Shown: one piece after another, positions 3,947 to 26,314 of the stretch
How positions within the stretch are numbered: position 1 is the first letter of the stretch
Layout of the letters: each line of letters starts with the position of its first letter
Source: Shigella phage 1b
DNA: 44,698 nucleotides
Direction: 5' to 3' (one strand)
Sequence record: OR420686
Translations under genes and position numbers: made by a program
The notes under the pieces: generated by a model
What the model was told of the DNA's origin: nothing
What the model saw: the letters and a program-made list of their open reading frames with translations, nothing else
Database searches by the model: none

Positions 3947-3996
3947 GTGTAGTGTAGATATAGTGAATAGTTATGCAATAAAACTGCATAAACTAA

Positions 3997-4098
3997 GCGG
4001 GACAAAAAGCGGGACAAACAAGGAGCGGGACAAAGCGGGACAGCACCCCTGTCCCGCCCCGGATGACGCGGCCTGGCGGGGAGCGGGACAGCGGGACA
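3997..4098. repeat. iteron-like array of GCGGGACA (six direct copies plus one inverted copy forming a palindrome)
   Basis: Copies at about 3997, 4009, 4025, 4035, 4083, 4091; inverted tgtcccgc at 4050. Confidence 0.75.
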
Positions 4099-4103
4099 GC
4101 ACC

Positions 4104-4160
4104 CCAGTCTTTCAGACTAGACGGGGGGTCTGGCACCCCCCTCGTCTGAGACTGCATAAA
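4104..4160. repeat. GC-rich stem-loop element ending in ctgcataa, copy A
   Basis: cagtctttcagactagacgggggg-tctggca-cccccctcgtctgagactgcataa; near-identical copy at 21390-21446. Confidence 0.7.
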
Positions 4161-4313
4161 ATCCAGTATTGCATAACGCACGGCAGCATGATGCGGATTG
4201 CGGTCGTCGATGAACTAGGCAACCAATGCGAGTTGCAGAATGGTGGGTGAGAAATGCAGTTTGCAGTCACAGCAGATAGCGATCAACTTTTTCATGCGCG
4301 TGATTAATATTGG

Positions 4314-18575: not shown

Positions 18576-19169
18576 GTGGCTGAAGTCTACTCATTCGCCG
18601 CCACTATTGCTACATGGGTGGATAAGACGAAGGAGAACAACGATAAGGCGGTGCGGGCGTACGGGATGCAAATACTCGGACGCCTAATCGAGATCTCCCC
18701 GGTGGGCGACCCTCGCCGGTGGAAAATTAACAGGGCTTACGCGCTGGCCCGCCAGCACGCGAACAAGGTGAACGCCGCGCAGCGTCGCAAGAATGGCGGC
18801 AAACTGAAGCGCGGGCAGAAAAAGCACGCCAGCGTGCTGGTGTCATTCAAGACTAAAAACGGCAACGTCACGTTCCGCCAGCGTGGCTGGGCTGCGAAGA
18901 ATTACACCGGCGGACGCTTCCGGGGAAACTGGCAGGTGACGTTCGACCGCCCGGCTGTTGGCGCTATTGACCGCGTGGACAAGGCCGGAACGGCAACATT
19001 AGCCGCTGGGCGTGAAGTGTTGGCGCACTATGATTCGAGTGAATACGGGTCGATCTGGTTTACTAACAACGTGCCATACGCGCAGCGACTTGAGTATGGC
19101 TGGAGTAAACAAGCGCCAGCGGGGATTGTTCGCGTCGTAGCGGCAGAAATTAATTCGAAGGTGAAATAA
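18576..19169 (+). CDS. hypothetical structural protein (197 aa), possible head-tail joining protein
   Basis: GTG start with AAGGGG RBS; position. Confidence 0.4.
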   Translation: MAEVYSFAATIATWVDKTKENNDKAVRAYGMQILGRLIEISPVGDPRRWKINRAYALARQHANKVNAAQRRKNGGKLKRGQKKHASVLVSFKTKNGNVTFRQRGWAAKNYTGGRFRGNWQVTFDRPAVGAIDRVDKAGTATLAAGREVLAHYDSSEYGSIWFTNNVPYAQRLEYGWSKQAPAGIVRVVAAEINSKVK

Positions 19170-19591
19170 TGAGCAATACCGCAATCCGCAAAGCGCTTAA
19201 CAGCGTGGTTGAAGAGTTATCGGCAAGCCTGAGCACAAGCCAGCGTCCGATTAGGGTTAACTGGGAGAACGTGAGCGGCGACCACGCAAACGGCAGCGGT
19301 GTCTACCTGGAGCCGTACCTGCTTCCGGCACCGACCCAGTTTGTGGGCTTCCAGCAGAAGGGCCGGATCTATGCAGGCGTGTATCAGGTCGCCGTGGTAT
19401 TTCCTGCTGGTACGGGCACACAGTATGCGAGTGAACTGGCGGACGCCATTGCGACGTCTGACAAGTGGCAGGCCGTAAGGCTTACCGGCGCTGCATTCCA
19501 GCTTCAGGACGCGCCATACACCAGTTCGGTGATTGAGGATGTTGACCGCGCCCGCATCGTGGTTACAGTGCCCTATTCCTGTTGTGCCTGA
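19169..19591 (+). CDS. hypothetical structural protein (140 aa), possible tail terminator/completion protein
   Basis: Immediately upstream of the major tail protein gene. Confidence 0.4.
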   Translation: MSNTAIRKALNSVVEELSASLSTSQRPIRVNWENVSGDHANGSGVYLEPYLLPAPTQFVGFQQKGRIYAGVYQVAVVFPAGTGTQYASELADAIATSDKWQAVRLTGAAFQLQDAPYTSSVIEDVDRARIVVTVPYSCCA

Positions 19592-19652
19592 TTTGGCGCA
19601 ATTCTGCGCGTGCTGTATCATTAAACCGTATATCTAAACAGGAGCGTTCATT

Positions 19653-20378
19653 ATGGGTTATCAACTTCCCAACGGGTCCAGCGTCCAGATTGGGTCCGTA
19701 TTAGGCAGCGGCATCGCTGTTACGGCAGCTACCAACGCCGCCGCGTCGATCTCCGACCTTACGCAAGGTTGCGTAATTACCTGTGCGGCTTCGCATGGCT
19801 TGGTTGTTGGCGACGTTGTTATGTTCACTAAAACCCCGTGGGTCCGAGCGCTTAACCGCGCATTCATCGTGGGTAAAGTATCCGAGAACGACGTTACGCT
19901 GGCGCGCTTCGACACCTCGGACGCCACCAAATACCCGACCGGTGCTTTCGGCGCAGGCACACCAGGCGAAGTGGTGAAGGTGTCGAATTTTATCGATTTC
20001 CCGTTTATCACTAACGTCGCCGTGTCTGGTGGCGACCAGCAGACCACCACTTTCCAGCCGTTGCAGGTGAATACCGCGATCAGTCTGAACACCACGAAAA
20101 ACCCGTTGGTACAGACCTACACTTTCACCCACGACGAAGAAGACCCGATCCGCCCAATCCTGGAAGACCTGGACGACACACAGAAAACCACTGTGATTAA
20201 GTTCACTAACCCGGCAGCGGCAAGCGGCAAAGGTGAAATCCGTATTTACCCGGCTAAGGTGTCTTTCCGCAAGATTCCGTCGGCTGAAGTAAACAACGTG
20301 GAGACGGTGGAGTCCACCCTCACTATGCAGTCCGATATGGTTATCTACCGTAAGGATCTTGTCGAGGCATTGTCTTGA
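19653..20378 (+). CDS. major tail protein, putative
   Basis: 241 aa; strong AGGAG RBS; terminator downstream; precedes the chaperone and tape measure genes. Confidence 0.6.
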   Translation: MGYQLPNGSSVQIGSVLGSGIAVTAATNAAASISDLTQGCVITCAASHGLVVGDVVMFTKTPWVRALNRAFIVGKVSENDVTLARFDTSDATKYPTGAFGAGTPGEVVKVSNFIDFPFITNVAVSGGDQQTTTFQPLQVNTAISLNTTKNPLVQTYTFTHDEEDPIRPILEDLDDTQKTTVIKFTNPAAASGKGEIRIYPAKVSFRKIPSAEVNNVETVESTLTMQSDMVIYRKDLVEALS

Positions 20379-20408
20379 TTTGGTCGCTTAAATAGCGAGT
20401 GATAATAT

Positions 20409-20432
20409 GGGGCCAGCACGGCCCCTTTTTAT
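20409..20432 (+). terminator. rho-independent terminator
   Basis: ggggccagcacggcccc followed by TTTTT. Confidence 0.65.
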
Positions 20433-20446
20433 TGGAGAATTACATA

Positions 20447-20809
20447 ATGGCTAAATCACCACTCTTCACACTTGACCCTAAACCGACCTTTAAGCTGCCG
20501 ATTGAGATCCCGCGCCCTGGAGAAAACGAACCGGGCAAAATGACGTTTACCGTCCGTCACCGCCCGATCGACGAATTTTCGCAGACCATGCAGGACACTG
20601 AACGCAAGCTGTCGGAATATGACGACAACGACCCGGAAGGCTTTAACGTTATGGTCGAGGCCATCATGCACGTCGCTGAAGGCTGGAATCTGCCAGATGA
20701 ATTTAACGCGGAGAACGTCCGCCGCCTGGTGGTTAACTACCCTCGCGCGTTCGGTGTGTTCCACACGTCGTACTATCTCGAACTGATGGGACTGCGTGAA
20801 AAAAACTAA
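20447..20809 (+). CDS. tail assembly chaperone (G-like)
   Basis: Small acidic protein between the major tail and tape measure genes; ends at the slippery heptamer A_AAA_AAC. Confidence 0.6.
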   Translation: MAKSPLFTLDPKPTFKLPIEIPRPGENEPGKMTFTVRHRPIDEFSQTMQDTERKLSEYDDNDPEGFNVMVEAIMHVAEGWNLPDEFNAENVRRLVVNYPRAFGVFHTSYYLELMGLREKN

Positions 20810-21126
20810 TTGAGGCGGCGCGACGCTTTTATGGCCCGCCGCCACCCTCCGAAGATTTAGCCGCAAGTTTATGGGGTGCGGCCCCCGAAGATGTTTGCCC
20901 GCCGGTTGCGCTATGGCCCGACAACGCGAAGATCGTCGCAGTCTTCACAGATTGCGCCACGCAATGGCGCACCGGATTCGGTGGCGCATACGGCATCGAC
21001 TACGGTGTTCTGGAATGGCTATTTAAGATGCACGGCATCGAAAACGCGCAACGTGCGTTTAAAGATATCAAGCTAATGGAACGAATCGCGCTTGATGAAA
21101 TGGCGCAGCAGAACCACGCACAGTGA
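20447..21126 (+). CDS. tail assembly chaperone frameshift product (GT-like), via programmed -1 frameshift near 20800-20806
   Basis: Slippery A_AAA_AAC in the zero frame at the last codons of the G-like ORF; the -1 frame is open for about 107 codons to the TGA at 21124-21126 and encodes a T-domain-like sequence (LWPDNAKIVAVFTDCATQWRTGFGGAYGIDYGVLEWLF...). Confidence 0.55.
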
Positions 21127-21127
21127 A

Positions 21128-21386
21128 GCGGGACAAAACGGGACGTCCCGCTTTGTCCCGCCTCTGTAAAACTGCATATCTAATCACTTCCATTGCATAA
21201 ACCAAAAGCGGGACAGGCGGGACGTCCCGTTTTGTCCCACCCCATAAATGTGCATATCTATTCGCATTTCGTGCATAAAACAAACGGGACAAAAAGCGGG
21301 ACAGACCGGGGGCGGGACAAAGCGGGACAGCACCCCGTCCCCGCCAGTGCTGCCGCTGGTTTCAGCCGATCGGGACAGGCGGGACA
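21128..21386. repeat. iteron-like array of GCGGGACA/CGGGACA repeats (about 10 copies, including two ~34-bp palindromic units centred on GGGACGTCCC)
   Basis: Palindromes at about 21128-21162 and 21208-21240; direct copies at about 21284, 21294, 21312, 21322, 21371, 21379. Confidence 0.75.
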
Positions 21387-21389
21387 AAG

Positions 21390-21446
21390 CCCAGTCTTTC
21401 AGACTAGACGGGGGTCAATGGCCCCCCTCGTCTGAGACTGCATAAT
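21390..21446. repeat. GC-rich stem-loop element ending in ctgcataa, copy B
   Basis: cagtctttcagactagacggggg-tcaatgg-cccccctcgtctgagactgcataa; near-identical to 4104-4160. Confidence 0.7.
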
Positions 21447-21508
21447 GTTTGTTTTAAATTCGCTGATACAATGAACGACGGCAACTGCATAAAAAGGGGG
21501 ACTGCATA

Positions 21509-24151
21509 ATGGCAGATCAGGCAGCGGGCATCACGCTCAAGGCGGACGTCGCGCAAATTAAAACGGCTAATACTGTGCTGGACACATTTGCGCAGAAATC
21601 CGAGAACACAGAACAGAAAGTAAAGAAATTAAACGACACACTCGGCAAGTCGAAAAAGGTTACTGGCGACGCCGCGGGCGGAATGGAAAAATTAGCGACT
21701 GAATCGCAGCGCGCCGCCGACGGCATGACGAAGCAAGAGCGACTAGCCAGCCGATTAGGCATGTCTACCAAAAACCTGGGATTCGCATCGCGGAACGCGG
21801 CATTCCAGTTACAGGATATCGCGGTTACGCTTGAGATGGGTATGCCGGTGCACCGCGTTATGCTTCAGCAGTTACCACAGCTTACTGGGGCGTTCGGTGG
21901 ATTTGGTAACACGCTGCGTTATGTTGCGGGCTTCCTCGGTCCGGTAGGGATCGGCATTGCAGCACTAACGGCAACGTTAGGCGTAGGAGTGGCGGTTACG
22001 TCCCGTGCCGAAAACCAGGTAGCAGCGCTTAACAAGACGCTGGCGCTGTCGGGTAACATTTCCGGACTCACAGCAAACCAGATCCTGGTGCTATCCGAGA
22101 ACGCCGAGCGCATGGGCGGGTCATTCCGCAAGACGCGTGACACAATCCAGGCGCTGGCGGCGGCGGGTGTGAAAGCTGGTGCTGACTTCGGCGCGCTGGC
22201 GAAGGTAGTTAATGACTTTGCGAAGGCGTCTAATCAGCCGATTTCGGACGTGGTTGAATCAATCTCAAAATTGTCGAACGACCCGGTCGGCGGACTGCGT
22301 GCGCTGGCGGATAAGTATCATGTCGTGACCGAAGCGCAGATCCAGCAGGTGCAATCGCTTGTAAATATGGGGCGTGAAACGGACGCGGTGGCGCTGGCTA
22401 ACAAAACCGCCGCTGCGTCGTTTACCACTATGACCAACGATATTAAGTCCAACATGGGTACGCTTGAACGGTCGATGAACGTCGTCACATCGGCAGCTAA
22501 ATCTATGTGGGATGCCATCCTGGATGTTGGGCGCGCGCAGTCCTCGAATGATTCCGAGATGAAAGCGCGTGAGTCCTTGCAGCGCATGACCACGGCTTAC
22601 TATGCCGAGATGAAAGCGGTAAACGCTGCCGGTGGGGTGATGACCGAAGCGCAGAAAGCGCGTATTAACATGCTTTACAGCGAACTGGTCGCCCAGGAGA
22701 AGGTGGTGGCGTCGCTTACTCTGCGCAACCGTGCCGAGCGAGACAACGCAAGTGCCGCTGACGAAGCAGCAAAGGCGAACGAGGAGGCCAACCGCACCGC
22801 CCGCGACCGCGCCGCGTTTGAGAAGGAGTACGCAACCAACGCTAAGCGGCGAGCCGACGAGATCGCCCGCCTCAATTTGCTGAATAAGCGCGGTGTTATT
22901 AACGAGAAAGAACTAGCCGAGGCGGTGAAGCAGGTCAACGAACGCTACAAAGACCCCGCCCCCAAAAAGGCGGCGGCAGTTCGCGTCGATGCCGGTGTCA
23001 AAATGCTGGAGGTCGCACGGAGTGAACTGGCCCAGCTTAAAGCGTCCGGAAAGCAAATCGAGTCAAACTCCGCAACACAGACCCGAGCGCAACGCGCTCA
23101 ATCAGCCCTTAACAAGCTGATCGCGGATCATGAACAGTTAATCGCAGCGAGCAAAGAAAGGGCGCTTACGGCGGCAGAAAAGCAGCAAATGGCGGAGTTC
23201 GAGTCGGTTAAATCTGTACGCGAGCAGATCGTAGAAGAAGCCAAATTGCTGGACGCGAAAGAGAAGCAGATCAAGGCACACGCCCAGGTCGAGGCCTTCA
23301 TCAAGAACCAGAACGCCGAGCTAAAAGCCACCGCGGCGGGCTATGCGCTTTCTACTCGCGAAGCGGCTAACCTGCGCGAAGAATTGCAGCTAATTGACCG
23401 CCTTCAGCGTGCCGGTGCTAACGATACCGATATCGACAAGGCGGTGTCTAAGCTGCGTGAAGTTCAGGACGCACAGACCGGTGCTAACGCCTCATTATGG
23501 GATGGATTCAGTCGCGGGCTTCGCGATAGCGTTGATGAAATGGGTAACGGCTATACGCAGATGACGTCACTCACAAAATTCACGTTCGGCGCTATGCAGG
23601 ACACGATGACCGAGTTTTTCGAGACTGGCAAGCTGAACGCAAAGGATATGGTTAAATCCATCCTGAGCGAGTTAATCAAGTTGGCTACCTCGCAGGCATT
23701 CAAGTCCATCATTAGCGCTTTCGGCGGTGACGGCGGCAAAAACGGATTGTTCGGCGCTATCTTCTCCGGCCTCACTAAGAATGCGGACGGCGGAGCGTAC
23801 GCAGGAGGCAATCTCGCGGCCTATTCTGGGAAAGTGGTAAGCCAGCCAACCTTTTTCAGTTATGGTGTCCAGGCGTTCGCTAAGGGCGCAGGATTGATGG
23901 GGGAGGCTGGGCCTGAGGCCATCATGCCGCTGAAGCGCGGGCCAGACGGTAAACTGGGCGTTGCCGCTGCCGGAGGGGTCGGTGGGATGATTGTAACGAC
24001 CAACGTTAACATGGGGACCGGTAAGACGGATACCAGTGTTAGCGGACCGGACCCGCGCACCGCTCAGGCGTTCGGAAAGCAAATCACCGAGTCGGTCAAG
24101 GCCGAGATCGTGAAGGCGACGAAACCGGGTGGTGTACTTTACAAACGATGA
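21509..24151 (+). CDS. tail tape measure protein
   Basis: 880 aa; Ala/Gln/Lys-rich helical sequence with Gly-rich hydrophobic segments; canonical position after the chaperone genes. Confidence 0.8.
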   Translation: MADQAAGITLKADVAQIKTANTVLDTFAQKSENTEQKVKKLNDTLGKSKKVTGDAAGGMEKLATESQRAADGMTKQERLASRLGMSTKNLGFASRNAAFQLQDIAVTLEMGMPVHRVMLQQLPQLTGAFGGFGNTLRYVAGFLGPVGIGIAALTATLGVGVAVTSRAENQVAALNKTLALSGNISGLTANQILVLSENAERMGGSFRKTRDTIQALAAAGVKAGADFGALAKVVNDFAKASNQPISDVVESISKLSNDPVGGLRALADKYHVVTEAQIQQVQSLVNMGRETDAVALANKTAAASFTTMTNDIKSNMGTLERSMNVVTSAAKSMWDAILDVGRAQSSNDSEMKARESLQRMTTAYYAEMKAVNAAGGVMTEAQKARINMLYSELVAQEKVVASLTLRNRAERDNASAADEAAKANEEANRTARDRAAFEKEYATNAKRRADEIARLNLLNKRGVINEKELAEAVKQVNERYKDPAPKKAAAVRVDAGVKMLEVARSELAQLKASGKQIESNSATQTRAQRAQSALNKLIADHEQLIAASKERALTAAEKQQMAEFESVKSVREQIVEEAKLLDAKEKQIKAHAQVEAFIKNQNAELKATAAGYALSTREAANLREELQLIDRLQRAGANDTDIDKAVSKLREVQDAQTGANASLWDGFSRGLRDSVDEMGNGYTQMTSLTKFTFGAMQDTMTEFFETGKLNAKDMVKSILSELIKLATSQAFKSIISAFGGDGGKNGLFGAIFSGLTKNADGGAYAGGNLAAYSGKVVSQPTFFSYGVQAFAKGAGLMGEAGPEAIMPLKRGPDGKLGVAAAGGVGGMIVTTNVNMGTGKTDTSVSGPDPRTAQAFGKQITESVKAEIVKATKPGGVLYKR

Positions 24152-24186: not shown

Positions 24187-24786
24187 ATGTCACAAGGTAC
24201 AATCACTCTAACGAACGGAAGTAAGACCGTCACGGGCGCGGGAACGGCGTTCCTGAGCGAGATCGGGAAGGTACGCGTATTTGCCCGCATCGACGGCAAC
24301 GACTATACCGGAAAAATCGCCGCATTCAACTCTAACACCGTCATCACCCTGGCGGATAACTGGGCCGGACCGACAAAAGCCGGTGCAGCTTATGATCTAA
24401 TCGAAGCGCACGACCCGCGATCAAACGAATGGCCCTATTACTGGCACATGCAATTGCAAGGCGGCGGAGACGTGCAGTTGGCTTTCCGGTCCGAGGAATT
24501 GCAGTTTGGTAACGGTTACGGTCAGAACATCGCGGACGGTCCGAACGCCGAAACGAAACAGTTCCCCGTGCAATTCATCGGACTGACTACTGACAAGTGG
24601 TGCAACCCTAAACTGGTTTACAACTTCCTTCGCGGGCACTTCGTCAAACCGTTTGTCGTCACCGCGCCGGATGGCGAAACAGGTTTATTCGTGGTCGAGC
24701 GTTCTAGCTTATCGTACACTGACAACGGGCACTACACGGCAACGGTATCCGCCACCCTTAAGACTGCTATTGGATTCGTAAGATGA
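24187..24786 (+). CDS. minor tail protein (lambda M-like) with a fibre-like N-terminal extension
   Basis: Track ORF trimmed to MSQGTITL; C-terminal part resembles lambda gpM (FGNGYGQ vs FGDGYSQ); N-terminal GTITLTNGSKTVTGAGTAF resembles the tail fibre N-terminus in this window. Confidence 0.55.
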   Translation: MSQGTITLTNGSKTVTGAGTAFLSEIGKVRVFARIDGNDYTGKIAAFNSNTVITLADNWAGPTKAGAAYDLIEAHDPRSNEWPYYWHMQLQGGGDVQLAFRSEELQFGNGYGQNIADGPNAETKQFPVQFIGLTTDKWCNPKLVYNFLRGHFVKPFVVTAPDGETGLFVVERSSLSYTDNGHYTATVSATLKTAIGFVR

Positions 24787-25571
24787 ATAAACTCTATCGT
24801 GAAGCGACGCGCTTTGACCCCTCTGGACGCGTTCGCCTGATTCACATTGACGCGCAGGACGTGGAACCCGGCGACGGCGCGATCGGCGCGGGCCACCACT
24901 ATTTTCATTACTGCTTCATCCCACACACTGCGGAGGATATTGCTGCCGCTGGCGGTGACGAGGATAAGCTAAAACCTAAATCAATCTTCTTCGGGGGGCA
25001 GGAGTTTGAATTCTGGCCCTTCGATCTGTCAGGCCTCAACTTTTCCACATCGACGGCAGCAGAACCGCAACTAACAATCGTCGATATTGGCGGCATAATA
25101 ACCCGGCTGTCGCTGAATCACGACCAGCTACTGGGCGCGAAGGTTGAAATAATCGACACATTCGCGAAGTTCCTGGATAACGGGTCGGACCCAGACCCGA
25201 CACAAAAACGTGTCCAGGAGTATTACATAGACTCACAGGTCGGACGCAATCCGGGCAAGCAAATCACCTTCGCATTATCCTCCCCCGCGGATATGGAAGG
25301 GCAGGTCGTTCCCCGTCGCCAGATCATGAACATGTGCGAATGGGCGCTAAATGGGAAGTATGCCAGTGGGGACGGTTGCACGTGGAACCTTGCACAGCCG
25401 GGCATCAAGTATTACGACGAGCGCGGAAACGAAGTCATCGCGATGAATATGGACCGATGTGGCGGCTGTTTGTCGGATTGCTATCTTCGTTTTGGACAGG
25501 GGCTTGCGGACCCAAAAGCGGCGGTGCTGGATTTCGGCGGTTTTCCAGGGTCAAAATTAATCAAGGGGTAA
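24783..25571 (+). CDS. minor tail protein (lambda L-like)
   Basis: Position after the M-like gene; C-terminal Cys cluster (CEW...GDGCTW...DRCGGCLSDC) consistent with the gpL iron-sulfur motif. Confidence 0.65.
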   Translation: MNKLYREATRFDPSGRVRLIHIDAQDVEPGDGAIGAGHHYFHYCFIPHTAEDIAAAGGDEDKLKPKSIFFGGQEFEFWPFDLSGLNFSTSTAAEPQLTIVDIGGIITRLSLNHDQLLGAKVEIIDTFAKFLDNGSDPDPTQKRVQEYYIDSQVGRNPGKQITFALSSPADMEGQVVPRRQIMNMCEWALNGKYASGDGCTWNLAQPGIKYYDERGNEVIAMNMDRCGGCLSDCYLRFGQGLADPKAAVLDFGGFPGSKLIKG

Positions 25572-25573
25572 CC

Positions 25574-26314
25574 ATGTTAACGAAAAAGGTTAAAAGCGAT
25601 ATCGCCGCGCACGTTGCGGCATGTCTGCCTGAAGAAGCCTGCGGCCTGGTTGTCATGGTGGGCCGCAAACAAGTATTTGTCCCGTGCATGAACGTATTTG
25701 AAGACCCGACCGGCGTGCGCTCGCGAAAGGACGCGTTTACAATTAGTGATATGGCCTGGATGGATGCCGAGGATATGGGCGACGTCGTGCGCGTAGTCCA
25801 CTCGCACCCAGGTCAGCGCGAGTTAACCCCGTCATTGGGCGACGTTAACGGATGCAACGGCAGCGGCGTTGTATGGACAATTACCAATGAGTATGGCGAC
25901 TTTATCGAGATCGACCCGGAAGACCCGCCGCTGGTAGGACGCCGATTTGTTCTCGGGGTTACTGACTGTTACGGCCTCATCATGGCCTGGCATAAAAAGC
26001 AGGGCGTGATTCTGCCAGACTTCCGCGTGCCGTACAACTGGTGGGAGACTGGCGAAAACCTGTATATGGACAATTGGTACGGTGCGGGCTTCAGGGAGTG
26101 TGAGGAGAATACGCCGGGGGCGATGGTCATCATGCAGATTAGCGCGCCGGTTCCTAACCATGCCGGGATATTCCTTCCAGGCAACCAACTACTACACCAT
26201 ATCTACGGCAGCCTGTCGAGCGTGATACCCTTCCGGTCGGGATTTTTCCGGGACAATGTGGTTAAATGGGTACGTCATAAAGACCTACCGGGGAATATAA
26301 CAGAATGGCAATGA
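25574..26314 (+). CDS. tail assembly protein (lambda K-like; MPN/JAMM plus NlpC/P60 domains)
   Basis: Track ORF trimmed to MLTKKV (AAGGGG RBS); HSHP motif typical of MPN/JAMM; Cys/His-containing C-terminal domain. Confidence 0.7.
   Translation: MLTKKVKSDIAAHVAACLPEEACGLVVMVGRKQVFVPCMNVFEDPTGVRSRKDAFTISDMAWMDAEDMGDVVRVVHSHPGQRELTPSLGDVNGCNGSGVVWTITNEYGDFIEIDPEDPPLVGRRFVLGVTDCYGLIMAWHKKQGVILPDFRVPYNWWETGENLYMDNWYGAGFRECEENTPGAMVIMQISAPVPNHAGIFLPGNQLLHHIYGSLSSVIPFRSGFFRDNVVKWVRHKDLPGNITEWQ

Follow-up and report, generated by a model that had tools for sequence, protein, structure and literature searches.

The DNA analysed here, a stretch of 44,698 nucleotides referred to below as the window, is that of a Dhillonvirus-like siphophage of Escherichia coli, as judged from a comparison of the locus at 19600-21600 with public phage records. 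Escherichia phage HK1 shares 93.6% identity with the window over this locus, and the 158 phage records that are matched are in nearly every case those of Dhillonvirus siphophages of E. coli. [quoted passage not shown] The tail terminator protein gene is found at 19169-19591 (Pfam Phage_tail_terminator_5). The tail tube (major tail) protein gene, which is the 5' neighbour of the G-like chaperone ORF, is found on the plus strand at 19653..20378 (Pfam Phage_tail_3, E = 9e-33; phrog_584, E = 2.7e-74), and the 3' neighbour is the tape measure protein gene at 21509..24151, also on the plus strand (Pfam TMP_2, E = 4.2e-44; Tape_meas_lam_C, E = 3.6e-14; phrog_24, E = 2e-183). A gene for a minor tail protein resembling lambda M lies beyond the tape measure gene. 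All of the features between the tube and tape measure genes that are discussed below are on the plus strand.

Two overlapping ORFs, an arrangement that typifies the G/GT class of chaperone genes, are located between the tube and tape measure genes: the G ORF at 20447-20809, and a T frame at 20800-21126. No convincing zero-frame gene is present between the stop codon of the G ORF (20809) and the tape measure gene (21509), and the T frame is separated from the tape measure gene by a 382-bp non-coding spacer that is filled with repeats. A search of 20300-21600 against Rfam returned only sub-threshold hairpin look-alikes, which fall in the palindromic intergenic region. On the other side of the G ORF, a consensus scan identified a terminator-like GC hairpin followed by a T-run (20409..20433), downstream of the tail tube gene and ahead of G. 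This element is suggestive, in that it could reduce transcription of G/GT relative to that of the tube protein; the number of terminator-like sites found by the scan is not above shuffle expectation.

The G-like chaperone ORF and the slip site

The G-like tail assembly chaperone ORF (20447..20809, defining the zero frame) encodes a protein of 120 amino acids and 14.0 kDa. The ATG initiation codon at 20447 is positioned nine bases after a GGAG sequence (20434-20437), and the gene is carried in the records of relatives as a CDS of identical length (363 nt). Residues 1-120 of the protein align with positions 1-124 of the 124 positions in the Pfam profile PF08748 (Phage_TAC_4), with an E-value of 8.7e-24 and a score of 84.5 bits, a full-length match that passes the curated whole-protein cut-off of 21.1 bits. 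The PHROG family phrog_569 is matched with an E-value of 1.2e-40. Among 19 distinct Dhillonvirus sequences, the variable sites in G are distributed 10/6/74 over codon positions 1/2/3. From fold comparison of a predicted structure model, no informative match for G was obtained.

The 3' end of the ORF reads ...CTG CGT GAA AAA AAC TAA, such that the last two sense codons, Lys119 and Asn120, make up the slippery heptamer A_AAA_AAC (20800..20806), and the zero-frame stop codon TAA (20807..20809) abuts it. A preliminary description of this DNA, made from its letters, had noted that the G-like ORF ends with this heptamer, and the heptamer is indeed in the correct phase, with AAA and AAC as zero-frame codons. 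Thus, as in other members of the G/GT class, a canonical X_XXY_YYZ slippery sequence in zero-frame phase is found inside the overlap, and in this case the overlap of the frames is exactly the heptamer. Immediately 5' of the heptamer, at 20797..20799, the -1 frame has a TGA stop codon, and an open product can consequently arise from a -1 shift only at the heptamer. As the slip would involve codons 119 and 120, the final sense codons of G, none of the 120 residues of G would be lost from the fusion, which would gain a further 106. The sequence AAAAAAC is present in four copies in the window, as compared to 8.1 expected, and the copy at 20800-20806 is the only one on the plus strand.

The extension in the -1 frame

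The -1 frame opens at 20800, and a ribosome that has slipped would read CTA ATT GAG... from 20806 through 106 sense codons to a TGA codon at 21124-21126, in agreement with the run of about 107 codons to 21126 that had been described previously. The peptide that was quoted from this translation, LWPDNAKIVAVFTDCATQWRTGFGGAYGIDYGVLEWLF, is found in the position assigned to it. Joined to G, the T-like extension (20806..21126) would create a GT product, join(20447..20806, 20806..21126), of 226 amino acids and about 25.7 kDa. A profile search of the -1 translation, which had been suggested as a check, matched the Pfam family PF08809 (DUF1799) with an E-value of 1.9e-20 and a score of 73.3 bits. The match extends from residue 23 to 99 of the extension (20872..21102), covers positions 1-80 of the 80 positions in the profile, and is thus full length and above the curated whole-protein cut-off of 26 bits. 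The T domain includes the peptide IVAVFTDCATQWR. The extension also matches phrog_680 with an E-value of 7.3e-30, and the fused 226-aa sequence covers phrog_17368 end to end (positions 1-212 of 213), indicating that the two-part architecture is already represented as a protein family.

Sequence variation among the 19 distinct Dhillonvirus sequences follows the -1 frame. Between 20806 and 21123, the variable sites are distributed 23/9/71 over codon positions 1/2/3 when this stretch is read in the -1 frame, and 9/71/23 when it is read in the zero frame. The first of these patterns is like that of G, and indicates that the -1 frame is under purifying selection across all 106 codons. An open run of 106 codons would arise by chance with a probability of about 0.03 at the composition of the window, and neither this value nor the AAAAAAC count is decisive on its own; the Pfam match and the conservation in relatives settle the observation, which is confirmed.

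With regard to initiation, the first ATG, GTG or TTG codon in the -1 frame is the ATG at 21028, codon 75 of 106, and this is situated within the DUF1799 domain. As read from the sequence, no canonical start codon gives access to this domain, and the downstream frame has the character that is expected of the G/GT class, that is, a real coding frame with neither a start codon nor a ribosome-binding site of its own. An exhaustive protein search with the T part identified 1058 representative homologues at E <= 0.001. The best 150 of the 1058 are stand-alone calls of 38-150 amino acids, with their first residues aligning at positions 1 to 49 of the query, and a fusion of approximately 220 amino acids is not found among these 150. 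The ragged, truncated N-termini of the calls are likely the result of gene callers handling an ORF with no true start. When the fused 226-aa product was used as the query of a word-indexed protein search, only two 125-aa G homologues and no fused proteins were returned, comparison of the fusion with PDB sequences gave chance-level matches only (E of 0.69 or higher), and NCBIfam has no model for the G part or the T part.

Two other ORFs that are located over the extension were considered as genes and rejected. The first is a GTG-initiated ORF of 66 amino acids in the zero frame (20876..21076); it exists as the preliminary description had it, and the judgement made there that it is spurious holds, as the ORF has no Pfam or PHROG match and its variation peaks at the second codon position (4/49/13). 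The second, an ATG-initiated ORF of 51 amino acids in the +1 frame (20871..21026), likewise has no Pfam or PHROG match and is considered spurious. Readthrough of the G stop codon is ruled out by the fact that the extension lies in another frame than G.

Conservation of the slip site in relatives

A slip-prone sequence abuts the chaperone stop codon in 94 of the 98 distinct contexts that were obtained from all of the fetched loci. The great majority (91 contexts) have AAAAAAC plus a stop codon, two have GGGAAAC (G_GGA_AAC) plus TGA, and one has CAAAAG (A_AAG) plus TAA. The other contexts are a fetching artefact (one context) and three T1-like, metagenome-derived entries with one A fewer. At these three T1-like loci T would fall in the +1 frame, and the variants are probably homopolymer sequencing errors. 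In IMG/VR, a scan with the alignment of T sequences found AAAAAAC in phase directly before the chaperone stop codon at 80 of 80 loci.

In all of the intact relatives, whether they have AAAAAAC, G_GGA_AAC or A_AAG, no base separates the slip sequence from the stop codon. For instance, G ends with ...GTA AAA AAC TAA in the Drexlerviridae (Citrobacter phage ZerotoHero and Escherichia phage JLBYU16), and with ...AGA AAA AAC TGA in Synechococcus phage S-CBS1. In the case of Pseudomonas phage YMC11/02/R656 and Acidovorax phage Aval, the end of G reads ...GGA AAC TGA, creating G_GGA_AAC, and in Pectobacterium phage Pappous it reads ...CAA AAG TAA, creating an A_AAG slip site. The codons that flank the heptamer vary, with CGT, CGC, CGA or CGG and GAA, CAA or GTA upstream, and TAA or TGA downstream, whereas the synonymous codons AAG and AAT are never seen in place of the Lys and Asn codons of the heptamer. 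The fact that these two codons are fixed while their neighbours vary is indicative of a constraint on the nucleotide sequence.

The same phages attest to the conservation of the arrangement as a whole, as both the gene arrangement and the slip site, in the manner of the G/GT class, are kept despite divergence in the Drexlerviridae and in Pseudomonas, Acidovorax, Pectobacterium and Synechococcus phages. The -1 products of the Drexlerviridae, Pseudomonas and Synechococcus phages align from codon 1, immediately beyond the slip; Leu1 is invariant and the identity is 32-41%, and the homology to distant phages begins upstream of any start codon. Among the IMG/VR loci, the first start codon of the T frame is found anywhere from -41 to +74 codons relative to the slip, depending on the lineage. 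In every relative examined, DUF1799 takes the T position beside the TAC genes.

A probable programmed -1 frameshift and its alternatives

We consider it highly probable, on the strength of these sequence comparisons, that the tail assembly chaperone gene undergoes a programmed -1 ribosomal frameshift of the lambda G/GT type. The same event, giving a G-T type fusion, was the central proposal of the preliminary description, and it gains support from the family matches, the selection on the -1 frame, the absent start codon and the conservation of the site. The majority of ribosomes would translate 20447-20806 and terminate at the TAA codon, yielding the 120-aa, 14.0-kDa G protein. A minority would slip back by one base on A_AAA_AAC, with the tRNA-Lys moving from AAA to AAA and the tRNA-Asn from AAC to AAA. 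The slipped ribosomes would then read CUA AUU GAG..., adding the 106 residues with DUF1799 and producing the 226-aa GT protein. Either tandem or P-site slippage would keep the zero-frame residues, such that the predicted junction is ...GLREKN-LIEAARR... and the predicted tryptic peptide NLIEAAR.

A different junction, ...REKK-LIEAARR, would result from transcriptional slippage, whereby the polymerase adds one A at the A7 run (20799-20805). The homopolymer is present and is kept in 91 of the 98 contexts, and fusions of this type are known to arise by transcriptional slippage at A/T runs (PMC5009743). However, the two relatives with G_GGA_AAC and the one with CAA_AAG have the same architecture without a long homopolymer, and their sites obey the rules of ribosomal slippage. 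Moreover, efficient transcriptional slippage in bacteria usually takes place on runs of nine or more, as compared to the shorter A7 run here, and slippage by the polymerase needs neither a strict heptamer phase nor a fixed position against the stop codon. Transcriptional slippage is therefore an improbable origin for the fusion.

Marginally less probable again is independent translation, either of the -1 ORF from a non-canonical start such as the ATT at 20809, or of a C-terminal piece from the ATG at 21028. Termination-reinitiation at overlapping stop and start sites is known in phages, gp16 of Sodalis phage SO-1 is annotated from an ATT that overlaps the G stop codon, and many records annotate an ATG-initiated fragment of 38-39 amino acids, for which the family phrog_14875 exists. 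Against this, the ATT at 20809 has no Shine-Dalgarno sequence upstream, and initiation at the first canonical start, codon 75 of 106, would begin inside the domain, and purifying selection extends over all 106 codons of the ORF. The homology to distant phages is also seen from codon 1, the position of the first start shifts from -41 to +74 between lineages, and independent initiation would leave the invariant slippery heptamer unexplained. Last, a chance open frame or decaying remnant, with no expression of the -1 ORF and a heptamer that is there by coincidence, is scarcely credible, for although a 106-codon run has a chance of about 3% and several records leave the stretch unannotated, this reading is refuted, as far as computation can go, by the DUF1799 match (E = 1.9e-20), the third-position pattern, the 1058 representative homologues and the conservation across families.

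For the programmed ribosomal frameshift, we infer the slip itself and its rate, the roles of the stop codon and hairpin, and the protein partners of the products. The heptamer A_AAA_AAC is reported to be much less shift-prone than A_AAA_AAG in E. coli (PMC5009743), and the efficiency of frameshifting may thus be low, which would fit the low rate that a G/GT system needs. By analogy with lambda (PMC5009743), many copies of G and few of GT would form a coat on the tape measure protein, recruitment of the tail tube protein would fall to the T part, and G and GT would not be retained in the virion. The binding of the tail tube protein by T is assumed from position alone.

Possible stimulators of the frameshift

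The adjacent stop codon, and perhaps a GC-rich hairpin that begins 7 nt 3' of the heptamer, would probably lengthen the pause that permits the slip. The hairpin (20814..20843) is a candidate frameshift stimulator only. Its arms, GGCGGCG (20814-20820) and CGCCGCC (20837-20843), form a 7-bp GC stem with a minimum free energy of -17.1 kcal/mol, corresponding to a z-score of -0.2 relative to shuffles, and across 56 relatives the mean z-score for hairpin stability is 0.05, so that there is no general signal. The 3' arm encodes the PPPP sequence of the linker. Within Dhillonvirus the stem is invariant, and in most Drexlerviridae a hairpin is found at the same place in which GGCGGCG/CGCCGCC is swapped for GGCGGUU/AACCGCC, a change from GC to UA pairs. 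In an alignment of 16 diverse sequences, 92% of cells are paired, as compared to 84% after shuffling. Both partners are altered in two of the pairs, in what is essentially one lineage split. The hairpin is absent from other lineages of the family.

The placement of the stop codon directly against the heptamer suggests, from the sequence, a contribution of slow termination to the signal. It is conceivable, but rather doubtful, that the signal in the Phage_TAC_4/DUF1799 lineage is a composite of the heptamer and the adjacent stop codon, in the manner of a 'shifty stop' where the P-site tRNA slips while awaiting the release factor, and that the hairpin may help. If this were the case, the ratio of G to GT would be set by competition between termination and slippage, and could respond to release-factor activity or to the physiological state of the host. 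The angle that is new here is a mildly novel one, limited to the universal adjacency of heptamer and stop codon and, possibly, to the conserved hairpin.

Annotation of the predicted GT product

The GT join is annotated in none of the 17 public records that were inspected, which include Dhillonviruses and distant carriers of the T domain. The T stretch is instead left blank, represented by a fragment of 38-39 amino acids, covered by spurious ORFs in other frames, or called 'tail length tape measure protein'. For instance, the fragment from an ATG like that at 21028 is labelled 'DUF1799 domain-containing protein' or 'hypothetical protein' in several records, and out-of-frame ORFs are annotated over the T stretch in the record of phage EE09. 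A literature search found no published experimental evidence for the fusion protein in any Dhillonvirus, and the literature on Dhillonvirus, HK578 and T1-like phages in connection with frameshifting or chaperones has no description of the slip site. The 'frameshift' that appears in PMC11564622 is an escape mutation in ksap1, a different gene.

Recognition of the GT product leaves the understanding of recoding unchanged. The event is well known as a kind and well supported in this case, and is one that has been missed by annotation pipelines. The main value is one of correct annotation and the removal of false genes. In addition, a function would be assigned to DUF1799, that of T-type extension in a family of tail chaperones with over a thousand protein clusters. 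For phage engineering, trimming or recoding of the end of G would, by analogy, be expected to abolish tail assembly. Tail assembly chaperones are also recognised by bacterial immune sensors (PMC13581612), to the study of which the product is relevant.

Comparison with known systems

The G/GT mechanism is established in phage lambda, where the site is described as being near the 3' end of G and the two products are made in a ratio of roughly 30:1 (PMC5009743). The lambda studies of Levin, Hendrix & Casjens 1993 and Xu, Hendrix & Duda 2004, 2013 and 2014 are considered here as they are summarised in PMC5009743, and conservation of the arrangement in dsDNA tailed phages is attributed to Xu, Hendrix & Duda 2004 as cited in PMC5009743 and PMC5313236. 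In common with lambda, the locus described here has two overlapping frames between the tube gene and the tape measure gene, an X_XXY_YYZ sequence for a -1 shift near the end of the first frame, a second frame with no start of its own, and a short and a C-terminally extended product, both of which are predicted here. The heptamers differ, being A_AAA_AAC here and G_GGA_AAG in lambda. Unlike the situation in lambda, the heptamer is formed by the final two codons, right against the stop codon, such that GT would contain all of G. The protein families also differ, with Phage_TAC_4 and DUF1799 represented here, and a 382-bp repeat-filled spacer precedes the tape measure gene.

The extension had been described as resembling T-type chaperone extensions. 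By position and architecture the resemblance stands, and the extension is an analogue of lambda T, whereas homology to lambda gpT finds no support, as a Pfam scan at E <= 1 returned DUF1799 alone. The Pfam family of lambda gpT is Phage_tail_T.

Close counterparts are the pairs found in T1-like Drexlerviridae, such as TLS TfmS and ZerotoHero gp15/gp16 ('tape measure chaperone'), which share both of the Pfam families seen here and have A_AAA_AAC directly before the stop codon. In these phages the hairpin is likewise 6-7 nt downstream, and the T parts show 33-41% identity, with homology beginning at the slip. In contrast to the locus in the window, the chaperone of the Drexlerviridae is shorter (104-105 amino acids), there is almost no gap between T and the tape measure gene, and annotators have used an ATG inside the T ORF, resulting in two genes rather than one recoded gene.

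Similar sites have been noted further afield. [quoted passage not shown] In Acinetobacter phage Loki, a frameshift at an AAAAAAC sequence adjoining the chaperone stop codon was proposed for gp12/gp13 (PMC5313236); this adjacency is like that described here, in a different phage group, and is a prediction. [quoted passage not shown]

Annotation of the chaperone genes in public records

The tail assembly chaperone pair, consisting of G in the zero frame and its -1-frame extension T, is systematically mis-annotated in the GenBank and RefSeq records inspected. A ribosomal-slippage join is carried by none of the 17, among them those of loci L001-L008, L108-L110, L151 and L153-L156. Both parts of the chaperone are labelled 'tail length tape measure protein' by phrog_569, phrog_680 and phrog_17368, a name that has since spread to many records. 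In phage EE09 the ORFs annotated over the T region are out of frame, and in Acidovorax phage Aval the T ORF is labelled 'FAD-dependent oxidoreductase'. For Escherichia phage vB_EcoS_L-h 1M (L152, NC_073086.1), the RefSeq feature table seems to be offset relative to the sequence: the 'major tail protein' feature covers DNA matching the end of G together with T, and a chaperone-sized CDS of 363 nt is placed about 470 bases (range roughly 365-470) downstream of the position expected from the sequence.

A start codon is also in question further downstream, at the ORF for a K-like (NlpC/P60-type) tail protein (25334-26314). The GTG start at 25334, taken from a mechanical ORF list, creates an overlap of ~240 bases with the preceding L-like gene (24783-25571), and the true start is probably an internal ATG (MLTKKVK...) near the end of that upstream gene.

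Possible further controls on chaperone synthesis

The spacer that separates the chaperone gene from the tail tube gene contains a GC hairpin resembling a terminator, GGGGCCAGCACGGCCCC, with TTTTTATT after it (20409-20433). This hairpin may attenuate transcription and, if so, would lower chaperone output relative to that of the tube protein. Synthesis of the predicted GT fusion may be limited again after the slip, in this case by a proline run, GPPPPS, in the linker of the -1 product (20836-20850), the coding DNA of which forms the 3' arm of the hairpin downstream of the slip site. Efficient translation of four consecutive prolines normally depends on EF-P. A proline-rich patch is kept at the same linker position in relatives, as PPPP in locus L111 and as KPP in T1-like phages.

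Possible slip-site variants

In four T1-like IMG/VR loci (L121, L123, L148 and L149), the slip site is one A short, reading GTAAAAAC and not GTAAAAAAC, such that the T frame becomes +1, not -1, relative to G. The variant site lies near 596-603 in L121, L123 and L148. A second indel is found just upstream of it in L121, and L149 carries more frame breaks besides. The missing A is probably a homopolymer sequencing error in all four; if real, these would be natural variants at a recoding site.

The repeat-rich gap upstream of the tape measure gene

The T stop codon and the tape measure start are separated by a non-coding gap of 382 bp (21127-21508) that is dense in CGGGAC(A) boxes, holding 13 of the 33 copies in the window, as well as recurring TGCATAA motifs and two palindromes, GGGACAAAACGGGACGTCCCGCTTTGTCCC. 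Another seven copies of the box fall at 3998-4097, within a second region of related sequence (3950-4170). In the pairwise alignment, 21255-21520 and 3950-4200 share 79% mean column identity, and a conserved hairpin, AGACGGGGGG...CCCCCCTCGTCT, is present in both copies. The pair has the appearance of a duplicated module for promoter activity or for binding a regulator, and such a putative module is unusual within a tail operon. Equivalent stretches have been marked in other phages: a repeat_region feature in the record of phage jat, and, in that of Sodalis phage SO-1, a 'region A' whose similarity to a 'region B' is stated there.
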